Source: Bacilli bacterium
GTDB lineage: Bacteria > Bacillota_I > Bacilli_A > RF39 > UBA660
Direction of reading: 5' to 3'
Assembly (NCBI GenBank): GCA_007117695.1
Contig: SKFZ01000010.1
Coordinates: 1,305 to 65,304 of the forward strand
DNA: 64,000 nt
Below, one piece after another: positions 23,613 through 59,161 of this stretch; position 1 is the stretch's first letter; every line of letters begins with the position of its first letter. Position numbers and translations under genes: made by a program. The notes beneath the pieces were generated by a model. It searched no databases and was not told the origin of the DNA. It saw nothing but the letters and a program-made list of their open reading frames with translations.

Positions 23613-23646
23613 AAAAAATGATTTAGGTTTTCTAAATCATTTTTTC
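23613..23646. terminator. Bidirectional terminator between convergent ponA and the ftsB-like gene
   Basis: Stem aaaatgatttag / ctaaatcatttt with loop gtttt. An A-run precedes it and a T-run follows. Confidence 0.6.
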
Positions 23647-24065
23647 TTTTTCTTTTGTTTTCTTCTTTTCATTAAATAAATTATTAAAATCAGTAATGAA
23701 AAAGATGATATTATAAATACTTTGTTTCCTTGACTAATGTCTTCCAATAAATAAGAATCGTCTTTTACTTCTTCTCTCTCAATCCTAATTATGTATTCGC
23801 CTTCTTTAGAGTAAAGAAAATTTTCTCTAGCAAACCTAGCGATATAATCAGGGTCTTGTAATTTACCTAATTCTAATTCTAATTGTTCTTGTTTTTTTTC
23901 TAGTAAAGCAATTTCTTTTTGTAATTCTTTCTTTTGACTATTCAACTCTAAAATACTATAAACATTTTGCCCGATTGAAAAAAGTGTGTAGAAAATCACT
24001 ACTGCTGAAATAGTTCCAAAAATAATTAATCTTCTTTTTACGCCTTTACTAACCTTTTTTTTCAT
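23637..24065 (-). CDS. Septum formation initiator (FtsB/DivIC family). Start moved to MKKKV with an AAAGGTGA ribosome-binding site.
   Basis: One N-terminal transmembrane segment, then coiled-coil LELNSQKKELQKEIALLEKKQEQLELELGKLQDPDYIARFARENF. The ORF-track N-terminus has no ribosome-binding site. Confidence 0.6.
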   Translation of the reverse strand: MKKKVSKGVKRRLIIFGTISAVVIFYTLFSIGQNVYSILELNSQKKELQKEIALLEKKQEQLELELGKLQDPDYIARFARENFLYSKEGEYIIRIEREEVKDDSYLLEDISQGNKVFIISSFSLLILIIYLMKRRKQKKKKK

Positions 24066-24144
24066 ACGATCACCTTTACTATAAATAAAGTATACCATTT
24101 ATGATGATTGCTATCAACAAATAAAAAAACTCCTCAGAGCTTTT

Positions 24145-24402
24145 TTATGATTCGTTTTTGTACGCTTCAAGAATAGTGTCTTCGAACATTTTTCTTGTTT
24201 CAGGATTAATTGGATGCGCTATGTCGCGGTAACCACCAGTCGCTGTCTTACGACTAGGCATTGCAACAAAAAGTCCGTTATCTCCTTCGATGATTTTCAA
24301 ATCGTGAATTGCAAAACAATCGTCGAGCAAAACTGAAGCGATACCTTTCATTCGTGAGTCTTCTTTTTCGACTTTACGAACGTTAACAGATGAAATTTTC
24401 AA
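24145..24402 (-). CDS. spoVG: SpoVG
   Basis: Strong match to SpoVG (NGLFVAMPSRKT..G.YRDIAHPIN..TR). A probable TTG start is preceded by GGGAGA. Confidence 0.85.
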   Translation of the reverse strand: MKISSVNVRKVEKEDSRMKGIASVLLDDCFAIHDLKIIEGDNGLFVAMPSRKTATGGYRDIAHPINPETRKMFEDTILEAYKNES

Positions 24403-24503
24403 GCAAACATCTCCCTTCATAGTACTTTACACCTTCATTATATACCACAAAATAAATAAATGCAATAAAAAGAGAACAAATGTACAATGTTCCCTTTTTA
24501 TAA

Positions 24504-35950: not shown

Positions 35951-35951
<1 letters not shown>
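35412..35951 (-). CDS. Histidine phosphatase (phosphoglycerate mutase) family protein
   Basis: N-terminal RHG motif (LYLVRHGKTEYN). 179 aa. Confidence 0.75.
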
Positions 35952-38002
<2,051 letters not shown>

Positions 38003-38019
<17 letters not shown>

Positions 38020-38995
38020 ACTCCTTTATAAATTCATCTACTAATAAATTAAATTCTTCTTTGCTTTCTGCTTTAGCAATTTTACTCTTTAATCCACTTG
38101 CATTCCTAACACCTTTCAAATAATAACACCCTTGTGTTCTCATTTCTAAAACCGCTACTTTTTCAGGCTTGTTCTCAATTAATAAGTCAAGGTGATACTT
38201 CATCATATTTATGCGCTCTTTTAAAGTTATATCATCTTCGTAAGAACCTTTACTCAAATAATCAACACAATTTTTAATCAACCATGGATTTCCAAGAGCG
38301 CCTCTTCCTATCATAACGGCGTCACAGTTAGTAAATTCAATCATTTGTTTTGCAAGTTCAGGAGTTGTAACATCTCCATTTCCAATCACAGGTATACTGA
38401 CTGCATTTTTAACCTCTTTAATAATATTCCAGTCTGCATGACCACTGTAGCCTTGCTTTCTAGTTCTACCATGTATAGTTATTGCACTTGCTCCAGCTTC
38501 TTCACAAATTTTAGCAACTTCTACTGCATTTATATTATTGCTATCCCATCCACTTCTAATTTTGACAGTAACTGGAGTTTTAACCTCACTAACAACTGAT
38601 CTAACTATTAACTTTATTTTATCAGGGTCTTTAAGCAAAGCGCTTCCTGCTTGACTTTTAATAGCAATTTTGGGAACAGGACAGCCCATATTTATATCAA
38701 TAATATCTGGCTTCATTTCCTTTTCAATGAATTTAGCTGCTTCGACAAATGATTTTGTATCACTTCCAAAAATCTGTTGTGAAATTGGCCTTTCAAAATC
38801 AGTCATATAAAGCAAATCCAATGTCTTTTTGTTTTTATACATAACCGCCTTATCACTGACCATTTCAGCAACTATAAGACCGGCTCCCATCTTTTTTATA
38901 ATTGTTCTGTAGGCACTATTACTTACACTGGCCATCGGCGCTAGAACAACTCTGTTTTTTATAGTAACAGTTCCCACTTTCCACATATAAATCAC
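38003..38995 (-). CDS. dusB: tRNA-dihydrouridine synthase
   Basis: LAPMASVSN and DINMGCP active-site blocks on a FMN TIM-barrel. Confidence 0.85.
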
Positions 38996-39057
38996 CTATT
39001 TAATTATAATATATATATACTTATTTTACAACAAATCAAAAAAATAATACTTATGTA

Positions 39058-39609
39058 TTATTCAATTTCATTATAAAGATAATATATAATTTCTTTATTC
39101 GTATCAAAACTAGAAGAACTCTCTACACAAGTTCTAATTGCTCTTTCAATACTTTCAGTACTTTTGTCATGTTCAAGCGATAATTTTTTATATAAATCTT
39201 GCATGCTATATTGATATTCTTTTAAATATAACACACTCTTTTTTATATATTCATATCCCTTTAACTTAGGATGGATGCCTTGCTTAATTAAAGCTTTACT
39301 TATTTCAATTTCTAGGGAATTAGATAAATAAGTCATGAACCTTTTTCGCAAATTTATAAACTTATTAGTAAACATCTTTTCATTTGTAATAATAACCTTA
39401 GCTTTCAAAAAATCACTAATTTTAGAAAAATTTCTATCAAAAGGAACTAAATCAATATCGACTATTATTATATCTGGTCGAAATAATTCATTAATAGATT
39501 CAATACTTTTTGTTGTTTCAACAACTTTTTCAACTTTAATACTTTTAGGAGAGACAGTTTTAATTACTTTTAAAAAATCGGGTCGCTTAGTTACTACTAC
39601 TATTTTCAT
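39058..39609 (-). CDS. Compact Spo0A-like transcriptional regulator (shortened receiver-like N-domain plus Spo0A_C DNA-binding domain)
   Basis: The C-terminal half aligns to the Spo0A effector domain: GIHPKLKGYEYIKKSVLYL against GVPAHIKGYLYLREAISMV, and TESIERAIRTCVE against ASRVERAIRHAIE. The N-terminal 90 aa is receiver-like (IVVVTKRPD, IIIVDIDL, VIITNE) but short. It overlaps the tpiA 3' end by 23 nt. Confidence 0.5.
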   Translation of the reverse strand: MKIVVVTKRPDFLKVIKTVSPKSIKVEKVVETTKSIESINELFRPDIIIVDIDLVPFDRNFSKISDFLKAKVIITNEKMFTNKFINLRKRFMTYLSNSLEIEISKALIKQGIHPKLKGYEYIKKSVLYLKEYQYSMQDLYKKLSLEHDKSTESIERAIRTCVESSSSFDTNKEIIYYLYNEIE

Positions 39610-40318
39610 AATTGTTATTTATAAATTCTACAATTTCAAAAAATTCATCTTTCAAAGATGCTCCACCAATCAAATAACCATCAATTACTGATATTTTTTC
39701 TAAAGTTGAAATATTCTCCTTATTAACACTTCCACCATATAAAACAGGAATGTTTTGATATCCGTACTTGTCTTTTAAAATAGATTTTATTAAATCTACA
39801 CTTTCAATGATTTCCTCATTTGTTGGTGTTATGTTAGTCCCTATTGACCAAACTGGCTCATATGCTACTACTAACTTATCCAAATTGTGAACATTATCAA
39901 GTGCTTCAGTTAATTGTTTTTCAATAAATTTCAATTTCTTTTTGCTAGTCTCTTTCTCGCCAACACAAAGTATAACACTTAAACCATTATCAATTACTGA
40001 GATTATTTTTTTGTTTATAATCTCATTTGTTTCATTAAAGTGTTCTCTTCTTTCACTATGCCCTATTATGACAGCACTTACACCGACACTTTTTGCTTGA
40101 TGAGCAGAAATTTCTCCGGTATATGCTCCTTCATTTTTAAAATAAACATTTTGAATACCTACTTTAAACTTGTTTTTCAAGAAAAAAGGTACATAAATGC
40201 TTGTCGGACAAACTAAAACATTTGAATAATTAGCCTTTGATTGCATAAGTTTAATATAAACATTAATTTTTTTAGCATCCAAATTCATTTTATGGTTTGC
40301 TACAATAAGCTTTTTCAC
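39587..40318 (-). CDS. tpiA: Triosephosphate isomerase
   Basis: 243 aa with active-site blocks (ANHKMN..., VIIGHSERR, AYEPVWSIGT, GGASLK). Confidence 0.9.
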   Translation of the reverse strand: MKKLIVANHKMNLDAKKINVYIKLMQSKANYSNVLVCPTSIYVPFFLKNKFKVGIQNVYFKNEGAYTGEISAHQAKSVGVSAVIIGHSERREHFNETNEIINKKIISVIDNGLSVILCVGEKETSKKKLKFIEKQLTEALDNVHNLDKLVVAYEPVWSIGTNITPTNEEIIESVDLIKSILKDKYGYQNIPVLYGGSVNKENISTLEKISVIDGYLIGGASLKDEFFEIVEFINNNYENSSSN

Positions 40319-40329
40319 TAAAATCCCCC

Positions 40330-41511
40330 TTACTTATTTAATACTTTTATTCCAGGGAGATCTTTTCCTTCAAGCAATTCTAAAGATGCCCCTCCTCCAG
40401 TTGAAATATGTGTTATTTTGTCTTTAAACCCTAAGTTTATGGCTGCAGAAGCCGTGTCGCCACCACCAACAATTATTGTTTTGCCAGTATCTACAATCCC
40501 TTTAAAAACTTCTTTTGTTCCTTTTGAAAAACTATCATGCTCAAAAACGCCTAAAGGCCCATTCCAAACAACTGTTTTACTTTCAGATAAAACTTCTAAA
40601 AAATTAGCTATAGTTTCATCACCAATATCAACACCCATCATATCCTCGTTTATGGAATCTGAACTTGCGTAATAACCTAATTCATCATCGATTGATTTAG
40701 CTAAAATGTTATCTACAGGCAAAATTATTTTATCAGAATACTTAACTAACATCTCTTTGCAAAAATCAATATATTCTTCTTCTAAAAGGGAATTCCCTAC
40801 TTCATAACCTTTTGCTTTTAAAAAAGTATATGCCATTCCTCCGCCGATAATAATATTATCTACTTTATGAACTAAATTTTCTATAACACCAATTTTATCA
40901 GAAACTTTTGCACCACCTAAAATTAGTGAAAACGGCTTTTCTGGACTTTCTAAAACCTTTTTAAAATTAATCAACTCTTTTTCAATTAAAAAACCTACAC
41001 CTACATCACTTAAGTTATTAGCGATTCCAACATTGGAAGCGTGGGCTCTATGAGCAGTACCAAATGCATCGTTTATGAATATTTCTCCAAGAGATGCCCA
41101 GTACTTGCCAAGTGTTTGATCATTTTTACTTTCAGCTTTTTCATTTAAATCTTCAAATCTTGTGTTTTCAACTAATAAAACATCCCTATCTTTCATATTA
41201 GAAATGCTATCTTCAAGTTTAATCCCTCTTGTTTCACCAGGAAAAGCAACTTGCTTATTCAAATAAAAGCTTAACTTCTCTGCAACAATCCCCAATGACA
41301 ACTTTTCTTTATCTTCAGGAGTTTTAACGCGCCCCAAATGCGAAAATATAATAACTTTAGCCCCTTGATCTAGTGCATAATTTATTGTTTTTAAGCTTTC
41401 TTTTAACCTGTTATCGTCTTTAATTTCACCATCTTTAATAGGAACGTTAAAATCACACCTAATTAACACTTTTTTTCCTTTTAATTCAAAATCTTTTATA
41501 GTTTTAATCAT
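40330..41511 (-). CDS. pgk: Phosphoglycerate kinase
   Basis: 393 aa with motifs RCDFNVP and GGGDTA...GGGASLE. Confidence 0.95.
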   Translation of the reverse strand: MIKTIKDFELKGKKVLIRCDFNVPIKDGEIKDDNRLKESLKTINYALDQGAKVIIFSHLGRVKTPEDKEKLSLGIVAEKLSFYLNKQVAFPGETRGIKLEDSISNMKDRDVLLVENTRFEDLNEKAESKNDQTLGKYWASLGEIFINDAFGTAHRAHASNVGIANNLSDVGVGFLIEKELINFKKVLESPEKPFSLILGGAKVSDKIGVIENLVHKVDNIIIGGGMAYTFLKAKGYEVGNSLLEEEYIDFCKEMLVKYSDKIILPVDNILAKSIDDELGYYASSDSINEDMMGVDIGDETIANFLEVLSESKTVVWNGPLGVFEHDSFSKGTKEVFKGIVDTGKTIIVGGGDTASAAINLGFKDKITHISTGGGASLELLEGKDLPGIKVLNK

Positions 41512-42512
41512 AAATCCTCCTGAAAATCAAATCTTTTAACATCTACTTGATAATTTCTATTTATTTCCTCGCTTGATAAAGAACGATTATATACTCTTAT
41601 TGAATGAATTTCGCCTTCAAAATAATTCGACCCATCTCCTATTATGAAATGATTATCATCACCAATTTGAATATAATCGCTTACCTCTTCGCTATTATCA
41701 TTCAAATATATAATAGAGTTATTTAATGAACCATTATTTATGAGTGCTAGCCTATAGGGCTCACCCATACTATATGATGAACTATATCCATGTGTATTAG
41801 ATGATCCATAATGCCAAAGAGGGTCAGTAGAAGAAAATTCTAAGTATGCAAAATCTCTAATACCTACATAAGACGTTGATGTTCCACTTTGCCTCAAAAC
41901 CAACTCTATGGTAAAGTCTTCACCTAGTAAACTTGGTTTTATTTTTCTTGCAGAATTTAAAACATCATTGCTATTTTCAAATTTTAAACTATTCACAGTC
42001 CATCTATCTTTATCGATTAATATTATATCATTATTAGAGCTGGTTAAATCTTGCATATAATTATTAAACCTAAAACCTTTTCCATTATTGTTTATGGCAT
42101 CATAATGAAGCACAAGCCCTTCTTGTTCATACATGTCAATTCCTGCTTTAAATCTTTCAAATGAATAATCTATCATTCCACTTGAAAGCCTTTCTGCTAC
42201 TATAGTAAAATTATTATTAACCGTGTCATCAGTTTCAGGATCAATCACCGTTTGCCTAATAAGACCTTTTTCTTCTAAAAACTTTATCGATATAAATGCT
42301 TTTCCTGATTCAACATTTAACTGTTCAAAATAATTTCTGTTTGACTCAATATATGATTCTGTTGCCATATACAAATTTTGCAAGTAGGTATCAAAGTCAT
42401 TTTGATTTGTTCTTCTGAATGTATTTATTATTGTTGGTACAGAAATTATAAGCACAATTGCAAGCACAACTATAACACCTAATAATTCAACTAATGTAAA
42501 ACCCTTTTTCAT
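41508..42512 (-). CDS. Prepilin-type (class III signal peptide) modular pilin-like protein with a C-terminal LamG/ConA-like lectin module
   Basis: The N-terminus MKKG|FTLVELLGVIVVLAIV carries a canonical prepilin peptidase site (G-1, F+1, E+5) and a hydrophobic helix. The C-terminal 200 aa ends with the Laminin_G_3-type motif GEIHSIRVYNRSLSSEEI. The stop overlaps the pgk ATG (ATGA). Confidence 0.6.
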   Translation of the reverse strand: MKKGFTLVELLGVIVVLAIVLIISVPTIINTFRRTNQNDFDTYLQNLYMATESYIESNRNYFEQLNVESGKAFISIKFLEEKGLIRQTVIDPETDDTVNNNFTIVAERLSSGMIDYSFERFKAGIDMYEQEGLVLHYDAINNNGKGFRFNNYMQDLTSSNNDIILIDKDRWTVNSLKFENSNDVLNSARKIKPSLLGEDFTIELVLRQSGTSTSYVGIRDFAYLEFSSTDPLWHYGSSNTHGYSSSYSMGEPYRLALINNGSLNNSIIYLNDNSEEVSDYIQIGDDNHFIIGDGSNYFEGEIHSIRVYNRSLSSEEINRNYQVDVKRFDFQEDL

Positions 42513-42535
42513 AATTCACCTACTTTACTAGTTTA

Positions 42536-42560
42536 AAAAGATTAGTTAAACTAATCTTTT
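42536..42560 (-). promoter_or_regulatory. AT-rich hairpin immediately after the gap stop codon. It could be an intra-operon attenuator or an RNA processing element.
   Basis: Near-perfect palindrome aaaagattagtt(a)aactaatctttt spanning the gap stop. Only about 46 nt separate gap from the pilin-like gene. Confidence 0.4.
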
Positions 42561-43566
42561 ATAGTTCGTTTATAAATTTTGCAAGTCTAACCATTTGAGC
42601 GCTATAGCCCATCTCATTATCATACCAAGCAACAACTTTAACTAGTTGCTTACCATCGACTTCCAATACTTCAGTTGAAAGACCATCAACCAAGCTTCCA
42701 TAAGTACTACTAATTACATCGCTTGAAACAATTGGGTCTTCTGTATATTTAAAAGTATCATTTTGGTTATTTTCAAATAATTTATTAATTTCTTCTTTCG
42801 AAGTGTTTTTGTTTAATTCAATTGTTAAATCAACTACTGAACCCGTAGTTGTTGGAACTCTAAGTGCACTACCATCTAGTTTTCCTTTTAATTCAGGTAT
42901 AACAAGCCCTATTGCCGCTGCTGCACCAGTCGAAGAAGGAACAATGTTAGCAGCACCTGCTCTTCCTCTTCTTGCTTTATGACCTTTTGAATGAGCCACA
43001 TCTAAAATCGTTTGATCATTAGTATAAGCATGAACTGTAGTCATAAAACCTTTCACTACTTTAAACTCCTTGTTTAACAAATCAACTACTGGAGCCAAAC
43101 AATTAGTTGTACAACTTGCCGCACTAATAACTTGTTCACTTCCGTCTAAAACATTTTCATTAACGCCGAATACAACAGTTTTTAAGTCTCCTTTTCCTGG
43201 TGCCGAAATAATTACCTTCTTAGCACCAGCTTCAATATGAGATTCTGCTTTTTCCTTTTTTGTAAATAGCCCCGTACATTCAAAAACTTGATCCACTTCT
43301 AATTCACCCCAAGGTAAATTTTTAGGGTCCATCTCGCTATAAACTTGTATTTTTCTACCATCCACTATAATGCTATCTTCTGTGTTTGATATAGAATCTT
43401 GTTTATATCCTCTATGACTAGTGTCATATTTTAAGAGATATGCTAATTGTGCTGCATCGGTTAAGTCGTTAATCGCTACAACTTCAAAATTAGGATCATC
43501 TTCCATAATTCTAAATACTAACCTTCCTATTCTTCCAAAACCATTAATTGCTACTTTAATTTTCAT
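42559..43566 (-). CDS. gap: Glyceraldehyde-3-phosphate dehydrogenase
   Basis: 335 aa with NGFGRIGR Rossmann motif and the ASCTTNCLAP active-site Cys. Confidence 0.95.
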   Translation of the reverse strand: MKIKVAINGFGRIGRLVFRIMEDDPNFEVVAINDLTDAAQLAYLLKYDTSHRGYKQDSISNTEDSIIVDGRKIQVYSEMDPKNLPWGELEVDQVFECTGLFTKKEKAESHIEAGAKKVIISAPGKGDLKTVVFGVNENVLDGSEQVISAASCTTNCLAPVVDLLNKEFKVVKGFMTTVHAYTNDQTILDVAHSKGHKARRGRAGAANIVPSSTGAAAAIGLVIPELKGKLDGSALRVPTTTGSVVDLTIELNKNTSKEEINKLFENNQNDTFKYTEDPIVSSDVISSTYGSLVDGLSTEVLEVDGKQLVKVVAWYDNEMGYSAQMVRLAKFINEL

Positions 43567-45220
43567 AAATACTTCCTCCTATAAATTCTCTTAATATTGA
43601 ATTTCCTGGCACCATCTCACTTGGAAGTGGCAAGAAATTTCTTAAAAATTTAAGCAACCTTATTGCTTCATGATACATTGGGTCTTCTTCTGAGACTGTA
43701 TATAAAAGCGGCTCCGCATAAATTTTTAAAACACTAATTTCATAAACTAACGATGAGTTTATTATTGCATCTACATCTCTTTGAAATGGGTAAATAAATA
43801 TTTCTTCGCCTTCTTTTATCTTCTCCCACATTTTAAGAGTATCGGATGCTGTATATCCTCGATATTTATTATCTCTTACAATTCTTCTTATCTTTCTAAC
43901 ATCTGTCGCATGAACTCTATTATGATTATCTACATTTATGTGAGTTAATGGACTAATAAATATTTTATATTTATTTTTATCTTCTATAGAGACAGTTAAT
44001 TGGTCATTCAATGCATGTAGTCCCTCTACAATAATAATATCATCATCTTTTATTTGAAGACATCTGTCTTTATATTCTCTTTCTCCTGTTAAAAAATTAT
44101 ATTCAGGGAGCAAAACAGTTTCCCCTTCTAATAATTTAGTCATATGCTTATTAAATAAGTCTATATCTATCGCATTTACAGACTCAAAGTCTAAGTTACC
44201 ATTTTTATCCCTAGGCGTATCTGCTCGATTATGGAAATAATCATCTATAGATATTTGATGAGTTCTAAGCCCTCTACTGTTTAAATATATTTCTAACCTT
44301 TTAGCAGTAGTAGTTTTACCACTGGATGTCGGACCTGCTAAAAGAACTAGCTTAATGTTATTATGATGCTTATATATTTTATCAGCAACTGTTCCAAGTT
44401 GTTCTTCATAATAAGTTTCGCAAACATTAACAAAGTTTTTATACTTTCCTTTAGATATTAATTTGTTAAGTTCTGGAGCATTACTTACTCCAATAAATTT
44501 TCCCCAATCAGTATACTTTATATAAGAATCAAACAATATTTTATTGTGGTTATAATCGCTAGTATATTCTGGGTTCTCATAGTCTGGATAATTAATTACA
44601 AACCCTCTCTCGCTAGTTTTAGCAAGTTTAAATTCATCTATAGCACCCGTAGATTCTGCTAAATCAATAAAAAAATAATCAAAAATATTATCTAACTTAA
44701 ACAATGTTACATAACTATTACTTATATATTTTAGTAAATCTACTTTGTCATTTTGTTTTTTCTTTCTAAAATACTCAATCGCCTCGACGCGGGCTACTTG
44801 CATCTTTTTAATAGGTAAGTCTTTTTTTATTATCTTATTTAACTCTTTTTCTAAATCATCCAACAACTTTTCAGTTATTACTATCCCAGGTATTTCACAA
44901 TAAACCCCCTTATCCATAGAGTGTTCTATAATTATGTCTCGATCTTCTCCGAGCATTTTCTTAACAGCTAATACTAACATAAAATGCAAAGTTCTTTCAT
45001 AAGCAATATTACCTATTTTAGATGACCTATCATAAAAATCAACTAATGAATCTGAATGAACCTTTTCACTTAGATGGCATAAGGTGTTTTTTAAAGAGGC
45101 TACTAATATAGGATATTCATATTTGCTTTGATAATCTTTTGCAACTTCTCTTAAACTAACAGAATGATTATATTCTTTGTACTCTAAGTTTTTATAGTTT
45201 ATTTTTATTTTGCCCTTCAT
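43556..45220 (-). CDS. Uridine kinase/phosphoribulokinase-family P-loop kinase fused to an N-terminal ThrRS-like (TGS/second additional domain) region
   Basis: P-loop AGPTSSGKTTTAKRL and Udk-like blocks (ISIDDYFHNR, IIIVEGLHALN). The N-terminal 260 aa resembles the threonyl-tRNA synthetase N-terminus. It overlaps the gap start by 11 nt. Confidence 0.65.
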   Translation of the reverse strand: MKGKIKINYKNLEYKEYNHSVSLREVAKDYQSKYEYPILVASLKNTLCHLSEKVHSDSLVDFYDRSSKIGNIAYERTLHFMLVLAVKKMLGEDRDIIIEHSMDKGVYCEIPGIVITEKLLDDLEKELNKIIKKDLPIKKMQVARVEAIEYFRKKKQNDKVDLLKYISNSYVTLFKLDNIFDYFFIDLAESTGAIDEFKLAKTSERGFVINYPDYENPEYTSDYNHNKILFDSYIKYTDWGKFIGVSNAPELNKLISKGKYKNFVNVCETYYEEQLGTVADKIYKHHNNIKLVLLAGPTSSGKTTTAKRLEIYLNSRGLRTHQISIDDYFHNRADTPRDKNGNLDFESVNAIDIDLFNKHMTKLLEGETVLLPEYNFLTGEREYKDRCLQIKDDDIIIVEGLHALNDQLTVSIEDKNKYKIFISPLTHINVDNHNRVHATDVRKIRRIVRDNKYRGYTASDTLKMWEKIKEGEEIFIYPFQRDVDAIINSSLVYEISVLKIYAEPLLYTVSEEDPMYHEAIRLLKFLRNFLPLPSEMVPGNSILREFIGGSIYEN

Positions 45221-47869: not shown

Positions 47870-47900
47870 CAAAAAAACACGTTTAACGTGTTTTTTTTTA
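47870..47900. terminator. Bidirectional terminator between convergent rpsD and tyrS
   Basis: A7 run, then stem aacacgtt/aacgtgtt, then a T9 run. Confidence 0.65.
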
Positions 47901-49124: not shown

Positions 49125-49353
49125 TTTCTTTTTCCTCCTTTTATTTAAACAAAAAAATATTATGCCCAAGGACGAGTGTAACCCGCGGTACCACCTTAGT
49201 TCATAATATTTTATGCTCTTATACTTTTAACGCAAGTTAACGATTTGGCTCCACGTGTGTAATTCATTTAATAACATTTAAGCATTCACACTACCATGCT
49301 CTTTCTTTAAAAAAATTATTAAGCTACTTTTCACATATCAATGCCAATTAATT
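49125..49353 (-). promoter_or_regulatory. T-box leader (tRNA-Tyr responsive riboswitch) upstream of tyrS
   Basis: The minus strand contains the conserved T-box sequence AAGGTGGTACCGCGGG (plus coordinates 49182-49197) and a single UAC (Tyr) candidate specifier in AAUUACAC (49259-49261). Confidence 0.75.
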
Positions 49354-49360
49354 TAAATTA

Positions 49361-49388
49361 ATTATATCATCATCTCAATTATTGTCAA
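49361..49388 (-). promoter_or_regulatory. Sigma-A promoter for the tyrS leader (TTGACA, 16 nt, TATAAT). It overlaps the 3' end of rbfA.
   Basis: Minus strand reads ttgacaataattgagatgatgatataat. Confidence 0.5.
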
Positions 49389-57559: not shown

Positions 57560-59161
57560 TTATTTGTTATGAATAGCAATACGAAAGCCTCTTGATGAAC
57601 TAGCACCACCATTGACAGCAGTAAAGGAAAATATACTAGCCCCAGGGTCCAAACTGTTAAGTCCACCCCTAACATACCAAGAATTATCATGGTCTCCTCT
57701 AGCAGCTACCATTAAAGCATCTTCCCAATTAAAAGTTTCCCCAAGAGCATCACCTAATTTACTATGTGAGAAGTCTTCTATGTCATCATTAAAATCATAC
57801 TTATCTATAAGAGGTTCTAAAGAAGGATTGTTTATATTTGGAGATAGTTCGCTAGCGGATTCTTCATCAGATGTAAAACCAGATTGCGATATTCTAAGTG
57901 ACTCATTTCCCGATGTTTTGACTCCAGCCATTACATATTCATAAGCCCCACCAGCCATATCATAAACACCATACACATTCCCTGTGGTACTTGTTTTTTG
58001 TCCATTTTCACTATTGTATTGGTTGCAATCAGAATTAGCTGGCCCAAGTGCCGAATCAGAAGCGCATCCAGTTAAAAACGAGTTATTTCTATTCGACCAT
58101 ATTTGTTCGTCACTACCGTATACAGACCTTGATAAATACACTACTGCTCCCCAGTCTATATTTCTTAAAAGCCTTGACTCAGCCTCATCTCCATTCAATC
58201 CATATATATTACCATGTTCATTAAAATCTCTTGCAACAACGAAGGCTTTAGATAACTCAATTCCTCTCCACATAATACTATTTGGTTTTATTATTGCGCT
58301 ATCAAGTTCAGGCGAACTAACAACACCTTCAGCAGCAGTAGTAGCACCTTCAAATCCGGTTGTATATTTTCCAACCCATAACCCATTTAATTCATCTTCA
58401 CCAAAGCTAAATGCTGGATGAGTTAACCATTCATTTTCTAAATTTCCAAGTGATTTTTCGGTTGATATTCCTTCAAAAATCACATCAAACATTACATCTT
58501 CATATGCCATTGCTGAAAAACTTGAGTTTAAAATTCTATACCTATATCTTGGTATCCAAACAAAGTATGCTAATACATCTTCGTCATCAACTTCCTCACC
58601 AGGTGAAATGTTTTGATAATAACCCCTGCTAGTAGCTGTTAACAAAGCAGCATTGGCCCACATTTTATCACTGTAGTCATACCAACGCGAATTAAGGTCC
58701 GCTTTTACCCATGTATCTTGTTCTTCATCATACATTATTGGTAGCATACCCTCGACTAGTTCAGGTCTTGAAGCACCTGATGGATCTATATATCCACACT
58801 TGCCTTGGTTTAATAGTTCATACTCAATATTATCGATTTCATTTATTTTTATTTTAACTTCTTTTAACTCTGATATTTCTTCATTTGTGTTTGGATCTAA
58901 AAGTGGACTTGGTAATATCCCTGAATTAAAAAGTTGACGAAGAGTTATACAATACTCCCTGTCTTCAATCAACGGATATTGATCTCTGTTATCGTCCATA
59001 TATCTCCTTGTAGAAGCGTAAATAAGCTTTAAAGTATCATCACCGACACTTGTTCTTATAGTTCTAATTTGATTAATAATAGGCGGAACTACTATGAGTG
59101 AAATAATTCCTAAAATAACAATAACTCCTAGTAACTCGACTAGTGTAAACCCTTTTTTCAT
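57560..59161 (-). CDS. Prepilin-type (class III signal peptide) modular pilin-like protein with a C-terminal FGE-sulfatase/C-type-lectin-like module
   Basis: The N-terminus MKKG|FTLVELLGVIVILGIISLIVV is a canonical prepilin leader. The first 15 aa are identical to the gap-pgk pilin-like protein. The C-terminal third shows FGE-sulfatase (SUMF1-like) signature blocks: GNVYGVYDMAGGAYEYV (compare GNVWEW), RGGLNSL and a terminal RGFRIA. This assignment is tentative. Confidence 0.55.
   Translation of the reverse strand: MKKGFTLVELLGVIVILGIISLIVVPPIINQIRTIRTSVGDDTLKLIYASTRRYMDDNRDQYPLIEDREYCITLRQLFNSGILPSPLLDPNTNEEISELKEVKIKINEIDNIEYELLNQGKCGYIDPSGASRPELVEGMLPIMYDEEQDTWVKADLNSRWYDYSDKMWANAALLTATSRGYYQNISPGEEVDDEDVLAYFVWIPRYRYRILNSSFSAMAYEDVMFDVIFEGISTEKSLGNLENEWLTHPAFSFGEDELNGLWVGKYTTGFEGATTAAEGVVSSPELDSAIIKPNSIMWRGIELSKAFVVARDFNEHGNIYGLNGDEAESRLLRNIDWGAVVYLSRSVYGSDEQIWSNRNNSFLTGCASDSALGPANSDCNQYNSENGQKTSTTGNVYGVYDMAGGAYEYVMAGVKTSGNESLRISQSGFTSDEESASELSPNINNPSLEPLIDKYDFNDDIEDFSHSKLGDALGETFNWEDALMVAARGDHDNSWYVRGGLNSLDPGASIFSFTAVNGGASSSRGFRIAIHNK

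Follow-up and report, generated by a model that had tools for sequence, protein, structure and literature searches.

A reduced Spo0A ortholog beside the glycolytic genes of an RF39-order member of the Bacilli

We analyzed a 64-kb stretch of the genome of a Bacilli bacterium (contig SKFZ01000010.1 of assembly GCA_007117695.1), referred to here as the window, in whose numbering all positions are given, and focused on a gene for a 183-amino-acid (aa) Spo0A-like protein located between tpiA and dus. Comparison of gene order across related loci showed that this gene is the positional ortholog of spo0A. The protein itself resembles Spo0A but is compact, with an N-terminus that corresponds to a shortened receiver, and it is not a canonical Spo0A. 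Taking gene order, domain architecture and conservation together, we consider it probable that a vertically inherited spo0A ortholog has turned into a Spo0A-derived DNA-binding regulator that works without phosphorylation and is probably a repressor, in uncultured, small-genome Bacilli of the RF39 order. The gene and the parts of its product are as follows:

39058–39609, reverse strand: reduced Spo0A ortholog, 183 aa; open reading frame (ORF) from ATG to TAA, stop codon at 39058–39060
39367–39609, reverse strand: truncated pseudo-receiver, residues 1–81, beta1-alpha1-beta2-alpha2-beta3-alpha3-beta4 (from hhalign, AlphaFold2 (AF2) models and alignments)
39307–39366, reverse strand: variable linker, residues 82–101, predicted to be helical, replacing alpha4-beta5-alpha5 and the hinge (from AF2 models)
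39061–39306, reverse strand: compact Spo0A_C domain, residues 102–183, helices A, B, C, D and F (from PF08769 and Foldseek)
39118–39159, reverse strand: recognition helix, residues 151–164 (T-E-S-I-E-R-A-I-R-T-C-V-E-S; from alignments)

The spo0A slot in the glycolytic cluster

The evidence for orthology comes from a series of loci in which Spo0A-family genes of decreasing completeness occupy the same slot. Completeness was scored with TIGR02875, the NCBIfam Spo0A equivalog model, which has a curated whole-protein cutoff of 200 bits. The immediate neighbors of the gene in the window, followed by the series (protein, length, TIGR02875 score in bits, and gene order with the Spo0A-family gene in brackets), are:

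39587–40318, reverse strand: tpiA, upstream neighbor (PF00121 on orthologs; 71% identity to the L001 copy)
38003–38995, reverse strand: dus (tRNA dihydrouridine synthase), downstream neighbor (PF01207 on orthologs; likely true start ATG at 38986, from the position of the Shine-Dalgarno (SD) sequence)

P0231; 251 aa; 234.8; YabP, 104-aa gene, DivIC, ClpP, PRK-like gene, gap, pgk, [spo0A], gpmI
P0238; 254 aa; 239.6; pgk, tpiA, inserted DUF1016 genes, [spo0A], gpmI
P0064 and P0147; 230 and 238 aa; ~137, receiver intact; pgk, tpiA, small ORF, [gene], BaxI
P0047; 210 aa; 86.9, full Spo0A_C at 96 bits; tpiA, [gene], dus, RDD, lysS, HisPhos, ackA, nrnA
Four-member family that includes the window protein; 176–184 aa; 23–41; tpiA, [gene], dus, RDD, lysS

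The slot follows tpiA in L016/L017, L012/L013, L010 and the window, and it follows pgk in L018/L019, where no tpiA was called. Two of the glycolysis-linked spo0A genes, those for P0231 and P0238, pass the TIGR02875 cutoff. The P0047 locus (L010) and the window share the identical order tpiA-X-dus-RDD-lysS-HisPhos-ackA-nrnA, and four of their six comparable neighbors (the tpiA fragment, dus, lysS and ackA) are 54–71% identical, with dus, lysS and ackA at 65–71%; the RDD gene is 32% and the HisPhos gene 42% identical. Furthermore, a PRK-like gene lies directly upstream of gap in both L018 and the window. Since genuine Spo0A proteins are encoded in the same glycolytic slot at the high-scoring end of the series, the window gene is a spo0A ortholog and not a paralog. 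An earlier note on this DNA had left the choice between an orphan paralog and a minimal Spo0A, and of these two proposals the latter is the one that agrees with the position of the gene.

The placement of spo0A inside a glycolytic cluster (PRK-like gene, gap, pgk, tpiA, spo0A, gpmI) was observed in several low-GC lineages without cultured members (L016–L019, L012 and L013), and the corresponding region of the window spans 39058–45220. In our literature search we found no description of a linkage of spo0A to a gap-pgk-tpiA cluster and none of a Spo0A in which a truncated pseudo-receiver is combined with a compact effector domain. Relative to the literature searched, the truncated pseudo-receiver form of Spo0A and the gap-pgk-tpiA linkage are new, while it is already known that RF39 carries spo0A (PMC10868615). 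The PRK-like gene of the window (43556–45220, reverse strand) encodes a 554-aa protein with a PRK/uridine-kinase domain in its C-terminal half only and overlaps the start of gap by 11 nucleotides (nt); the same gene precedes gap in L018/L019 as well, in the position that CggR would occupy in Bacillus.

The cluster contains further passengers. Between gap and pgk (41508–42512, reverse strand), the window encodes a 334-aa protein whose N-terminus is type IV pilin-like (MKKGFTLVELLGVIVVLAIV) and whose C-terminus is LamG-like, with 57% identity to its counterpart in L001, and a second protein with an N-terminal methylation motif (533 aa) is encoded at 57560–59161 on the reverse strand. Pilin-like passengers are unusual for a glycolytic operon in a very small genome. 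On the other side of the gene, lysS (35951–37426) shares only 53–54% identity with its counterparts in L001 and L008, the two loci nearest to the window when dus is compared (83% and 79%, respectively), whereas its identity to lysS of the more distant L010 is 71%. These identities suggest that lysS has been replaced or has recombined in some lineages.

The receiver and effector halves of the protein

The Pfam search placed a Spo0A_C domain (PF08769) at residues 103–166 of the 183-aa protein, with an E-value of 2.7e-10 and 40.6 bits (the gathering score being 25 bits) over profile positions 1–68 of 104, and all four family members matched this profile at 40.6–54.6 bits. The Spo0A-like character of the C-terminal half, which the earlier note had proposed, was thus borne out by a significant profile match, and the two motifs it had quoted, QGIHPKLKGYEYIKK and STESIERAIR, are both present. 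On TIGR02875 the protein scored 26.0 bits over residues 95–165 only and did not reach the cutoff, and the family members together scored between 22.8 and 41.4 bits. The Response_reg profile (PF00072) gave no match to the 183-aa protein, even at E ≤ 10, and none to any of the four family members at E ≤ 1. A direct sequence search of the PDB with the protein returned only a marginal match to Spo0A (E 0.28). A chance ORF is ruled out, since three full-length homologues occur in the same gene order elsewhere and the ratio of nonsynonymous to synonymous substitution rates (dN/dS) is 0.17 for the closest pair.

The origin of the N-terminal half was resolved by profile comparison and by alignment to 34 canonical Spo0A proteins and, separately, to low-GC relatives. 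With hhalign, the N-termini of the family aligned to Spo0A receivers with a probability of 82% and an E-value of 1e-5 over 76 columns, with residues 1–77 corresponding to beta1 through beta4. In the alignments, D51 occupies the phospho-Asp column and T75 the Thr/Ser column, T7-K8 stand in place of the DD pair, and in both of them the beta5 strand with its Lys and the whole alpha4-beta5-alpha5 block are missing. Across the four family members, the acidic-pair position reads T-K, T-D, T-T and T-K, so that position 8 is K, D, T and K; the Thr75 position is T in the window protein and L, L and V in the other three; and the beta5 Lys is missing from all four. Within the family (n=4), D51 is the sole invariant residue of the phospho-acceptor set. 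A truncated receiver with an imperfect acidic pocket and a retained Asp had been described before and is what we find, with the Asp being invariant; the Thr, likewise described as retained, is present only in the window protein. The linker that follows is 13–27% identical within the family in all pairs except P0002/P0003 (89%).

Receiver chemistry requires an acidic pair and an Asp, usually together with a Thr/Ser and a Lys, and Spo0A dimerizes via its alpha4-beta5-alpha5 face. Throughout the family, three of these five residues are gone, and so is the alpha4-beta5-alpha5 face. Because of these combined losses, control by phosphorylation is very unlikely, and phosphorylation of the pseudo-receiver itself is, judged from its residues, unlikely.

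In the effector half, 48 Spo0A-family sequences, the window protein included, show no variation at G118, Y140, E155, R156, A157, I158 and R159, and E155–R159 (E, R, A, I, R) are also invariant among the four family members. As far as alignments can tell, the helix-turn-helix with its ERAIR recognition helix is thus shown to be intact and to be the most conserved part of the protein, and there was no disruption of helix-turn-helix residues of the kind that might indicate a decaying pseudogene. However, the effector domain is not a full Spo0A_C domain, a point that the earlier note had missed. When judged against P0047, P0064, P0147, P0095 and P0041 and against the 34 canonical Spo0A proteins, a clean 20-column gap between the recognition helix and the last helix deletes alpha-E (consensus W-x-R-G...F-G...K-P), after which the final T-N-x-E-I/F-I helix is retained. 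We take the alpha-E segment to be the sigma-A-contacting, activating region of Bacillus subtilis Spo0A, a role for which our literature search gave no confirmation.

Structure models of the protein were consistent with this architecture. The AF2 model built from an alignment with Spo0A homologues had a predicted local distance difference test score (pLDDT) of 89.8 and a linker formed by one long helix (residues 82–109), and the model built from the four family members alone had a pLDDT of 83.0 and linker helices at residues 77–96 and 99–109, with pLDDT below 50 only at residues 88–96. The topology was the same in both models, with four strands, a helical linker and five rather than six C-terminal helices, and the receiver half accordingly had four strands and no beta5 in either of them. 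In Foldseek searches, both models aligned to the Spo0A C-domain structures 1fc3 and 1lq1 with template modeling (TM) scores of 0.62–0.77, root-mean-square deviations of 1.6–3.0 Å and a probability of 1.00. Alignments to response regulators made up of a receiver and a helix-turn-helix spanned both domains but were weak, with TM scores of ~0.3 and probabilities of 0.97–0.99 for the family-only model and 0.80–0.91 for the first model.

This architecture also bears on whether the gene could instead encode an accessory or horizontally acquired, phage-type Spo0A_C protein, with a canonical spo0A located elsewhere in the genome. Stand-alone or repeated Spo0A_C proteins number in the hundreds (1089 hits in a representative-library scan), the stand-alone genes occurring in phages and in many Firmicutes, and like the window protein they have the helix-turn-helix without a functional receiver; compact versions that also lack alpha-E exist among them (P0022 and P0152), and the phage families phrog_24603 and phrog_37855 give matches, the phrog_24603 profile matching the window protein at 30.7 bits. 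However, the stand-alone and tandem proteins have no receiver-derived N-terminus and occur in unrelated, often mobile contexts, whereas the window protein is set apart by just such an N-terminus and by its housekeeping context: its slot is conserved, has no mobile-element genes nearby and is occupied by spo0A or intermediates in related lineages, and the base composition is uniform across the window. We thus regard an accessory or phage-type origin as very improbable. The tandem Spo0A_C proteins carry two to six domains (P0009, 849 aa; P0049, 959 aa), and the stand-alone forms, of which there are hundreds, are 90–130 aa long.

Conservation, expression signals and sporulation context

A word-indexed search of public predicted proteins, clustered at 90% identity into 5.8 billion clusters, found only P0002 and P0003, both 176 aa long and 39–41% identical to the window protein, and a complete HMMER scan of a second public set, in which 1.84 billion representatives stand for ~15 billion proteins, added one member, P0004 (184 aa). 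The family thus consists of four members in total, with the homologues being 36–42% identical to the window protein and located in the same gene order, and each of them was recovered from the same soda-lake brine data set (SRR7083930 / ERZ27301260). The only genome found in a scan of GTDB species representatives was the metagenome-assembled genome (MAG) Bacilli bacterium CSBr16_55, which carries P0003. This MAG is classified as GTDB Bacilli; RF39; CAG-822 and comprises 0.45 Mb at 60% completeness and 29% GC (PMC6704655 supplement). Related MAGs comprise ~0.45–0.55 Mb at 60–72% completeness. A scan of JGI metagenomes yielded no more full-length members and two loci with Spo0A_C only. Three candidates of similar length, P0266, P0265 and P0268 (182–187 aa), were rejected as unrelated high-GC Spo0A_C proteins in different contexts, and P0041 (235 aa) has a degenerate N-terminus and lies on a contig too short for a judgement of synteny.

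Judged from its pattern of substitution, the gene is shown to be under purifying selection. The dN/dS ratio was 0.17 for the closest pair, P0002/P0003, and 0.30–0.58 for the other pairs, for which dS is near saturation. The start codon is kept across the family, and the C-domain is better conserved (39–50% identity) than the N-domain (29–39%). Within the 20 kb of gene order common to the window and CSBr16_55, the Spo0A-like protein is 39% identical compared to 53–90% for its neighbors, and its gene is the fastest-evolving of the syntenic block.

Such rapid divergence would be expected if the gene were a decaying relic, that is, a former spo0A that is drifting to loss, has no function and is kept open only to spare the expression of tpiA and dus. 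The progressive loss of domains along the Spo0A series, the missing SD (see below) and a dN/dS of up to 0.58 for one pair fit a relic as well. However, the ORF is intact in four lineages at 34–42% identity, and dN/dS is 0.17 for the least saturated pair. Furthermore, the drift seen elsewhere in the protein has spared the recognition helix and the G/K-G-Y motif, which do not vary, and neither deletion breaks the reading frame, the product that is left being compact and modeled as folded with confidence (pLDDT 83–90). We therefore consider it unlikely that the gene is a functionless relic.

Signals for expression were examined on both sides of the gene, where two features stand out:

39587–39609, reverse strand: overlap of the gene start with the 3' end of tpiA, 23 nt, no SD upstream (from ORF coordinates)
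38996–39057, reverse strand: conserved intergenic region before dus, 62 nt (from a promoter scan and a four-locus alignment)

The 23-nt overlap of the 183-aa ORF with tpiA, which had been reported before, is kept as 26 nt in L001 and 29 nt in L003, and in every family member with long enough upstream sequence the start lies inside the last tpiA codons. An SD sequence precedes 39 of the 55 window genes, and the Spo0A-like gene is without one. The gene for P0047 (L010) has its own AAGGAG SD and a 41-nt spacer after tpiA, with no overlap. In the intergenic region before dus, we found a promoter-like TTGTAA-17-TATAAT element (39031..39003) with an AT-repeat (TATATATATAT) between the hexamers, followed by an AGGTGA SD for dus. 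This spacer is better conserved than the Spo0A-like gene itself across the window, L001, L008 and L010; the number of promoter-like hits in the scan equaled the shuffle expectation, and the weight of TTGTAA-17-TATAAT therefore lies only in its conservation across loci. Owing to this conserved promoter-like element between the gene and dus, a single 12-kb operon, as proposed in the earlier note, is doubtful. A terminator scan from ezrA to nrnA found no terminator near the gene, and an Rfam scan of the window found a T-box upstream of tyrS only and no element near the gene. From these signals, we infer that the gene may be the last cistron of the glycolytic unit, coupled to the translation of tpiA, and that dus-RDD-lysS may form a separate unit. 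The T-box leader (49165–49350, reverse strand; 108.8 bits) lies upstream of tyrS, with a perfect TTGACA-16-TATAAT promoter-like site at 49388–49361 and a terminator-like hairpin after tyrS at 47897–47871.

The window contains one other gene with a sporulation name:

24145–24420, reverse strand: spoVG, not sporulation-specific (PF04026, E 5e-34)

As described previously, spoVG is the one other sporulation-named gene in the window, and the rest of the Pfam scan is without any. The scan of the window ORFs found no sporulation-specific gene in these 64 kb, corresponding to ~8% of a genome of perhaps <1 Mb. The scanned ORFs encode PolC, RF1/RF2, ArgRS, Der, RecU, a class A penicillin-binding protein (PBP), DivIC, FtsEX, IF2, NusA, LigA, PcrA and TsaBDE, with the rest being housekeeping or without a family match; NrdDG, AckA, LysRS, PGK, GAPDH, EzrA and TyrRS were named by orthology to L001-annotated genes. 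In the window, spoVG is located directly upstream of divIC (23637–24420, reverse strand), and in the Spo0A-bearing locus L018 (442–1351) divIC is preceded instead by yabP and a 104-aa gene whose position is that of yabQ. This difference in the divIC neighborhood is consistent with a loss of sporulation genes in the lineage of the window, but is not proof of it.

The distribution of 0A boxes, which the earlier note had named as a check, was determined for the window. TGTCGAA occurs six times compared to 3.5 expected, a count that is not above chance since 12 of 100 shuffles reach six, and all six copies lie inside called ORFs. TGNCGAA sites do not recur at matching positions in the window, L001, L008 and L010, except for one inside dus that is shared by the window and L008.

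These observations bear on the possibility that the protein is a minimal Spo0A that still works, with D51 being phosphorylated by an orphan kinase and a reduced sporulation programme being switched on as a result. D51 is aligned to the phospho-Asp and invariant in four members, the gene is the positional ortholog of spo0A, and the RF39 order is predicted to sporulate, with genomes that carry spo0A (PMC10868615). In addition, a cell wall is present, as the window encodes a class A PBP, DivIC, FtsEX and EzrA, the last of these by orthology. However, the acidic pair and the beta5 strand with its Lys are missing, the Thr is not conserved, and Response_reg is not matched at E ≤ 10; alpha-E, which we take to be needed for the activation of sigma-A promoters, is deleted; and the 64-kb window holds no sporulation-specific gene. 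A protein that still switches on sporulation is thus quite unlikely.

The proposed regulator and its relation to known systems

We propose that what is left of Spo0A is a pseudo-receiver of four strands, a helical linker of variable sequence and a minimal DNA-binding domain, and that the resulting protein would no longer be phosphorylated and would bind DNA constitutively and at low abundance through the retained Spo0A helix-turn-helix. The isolated DNA-binding domain of Spo0A binds its targets without phosphorylation (PMC3485338), and since the helix-turn-helix is intact in the window protein, its binding would be constitutive as well. Dimerization might occur through the stub receiver or through the linker helix. 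Because the alpha-E segment, presumably the site of sigma-A contact, is gone, the protein would act mainly by occupancy, as a repressor, an occluder or an autoregulator, rather than as an activator. Translational coupling to tpiA would account for low-level synthesis and would tie the dosage of the protein to the expression of the glycolytic genes. It is also possible, and we offer this as a tentative view, that a lineage with a genome shrunk to well below 1 Mb, in which sporulation has probably been lost, kept the DNA-reading head of Spo0A as a kinase-independent regulator with its dosage coupled to the glycolytic operon.

Several observations weigh against a phosphorylation-independent regulator. 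The invariance of D51 could reflect residual phospho-chemistry or another ligand role, and the RF39 order in general is predicted to sporulate (PMC10868615). A second canonical spo0A or surviving sporulation genes may be present beyond the 64 kb. TGTCGAA is not enriched above chance in the window, and no candidate sites for the protein were found there. Furthermore, the sigma-A role assigned to the deleted segment comes from the genetics of B. subtilis, the position of the gene as the fastest-evolving of its block would also fit relaxed constraint on a dispensable relic, and the family has only four known members from one sample set.

Compared to the Spo0A proteins of Bacillus and Clostridium (TIGR02875; 1fc3, 1lq1), the window protein has the same effector fold of helices A–D and F with the motifs GxxxxxKGYxY and SxERAIR, and its N-terminus derives from the same receiver and has an Asp at the phospho-acceptor column. 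However, it has 183 residues compared to ~250–270, carries a short variable helix in place of the hinge and is without the acidic pair, the beta5 Lys, the alpha4-beta5-alpha5 face and alpha-E. Among its closest full-length relatives are the glycolysis-linked Spo0A proteins P0231 and P0238 (L016–L019), which are encoded in the same neighborhood but have an intact receiver, score 235–240 bits and are followed by gpmI rather than dus, with yabP present at one locus. P0047 (L010) shares the gene order of the window protein and has a receiver that is undetected by Pfam and has already lost beta5; in contrast to the window protein, it has kept the DD pair and a full Spo0A_C domain including alpha-E (profile positions 1–102 of 104).

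Atypical, phosphorylation-independent regulators and pseudo-receivers are known, such as HP1043 of Helicobacter pylori and the N-domain of KaiA. By analogy, the window protein would be expected to resemble these in using the receiver fold as a structural or dimerization module, with its output constitutively available. However, the output domains are unrelated, and truncation to four strands is more extreme than in most described cases.

Spo0A serves as a marker gene for predicting sporulation in uncultured Firmicutes. A match to the Spo0A_C domain alone may represent a derivative that is probably without phospho-control or activation, and should not be scored as sporulation capacity in MAGs. 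Moreover, the loci described here form a rare, synteny-ordered series that begins with an intact response regulator and ends with a minimal helix-turn-helix attached to a pseudo-receiver, and reveals which parts of a master regulator survive when a developmental programme decays. The presence of spo0A within the glycolytic cluster of several RF39-like lineages may indicate that carbon metabolism and control by Spo0A are linked. If the proposed regulator is real, RF39-like lineages in which spo0A is linked to gap-pgk-tpiA would represent an ancestral stage of this coupling, and the former master switch of sporulation would act as a reporter or controller of central carbon flux, or of replication and the cell cycle, in a minimal walled cell.

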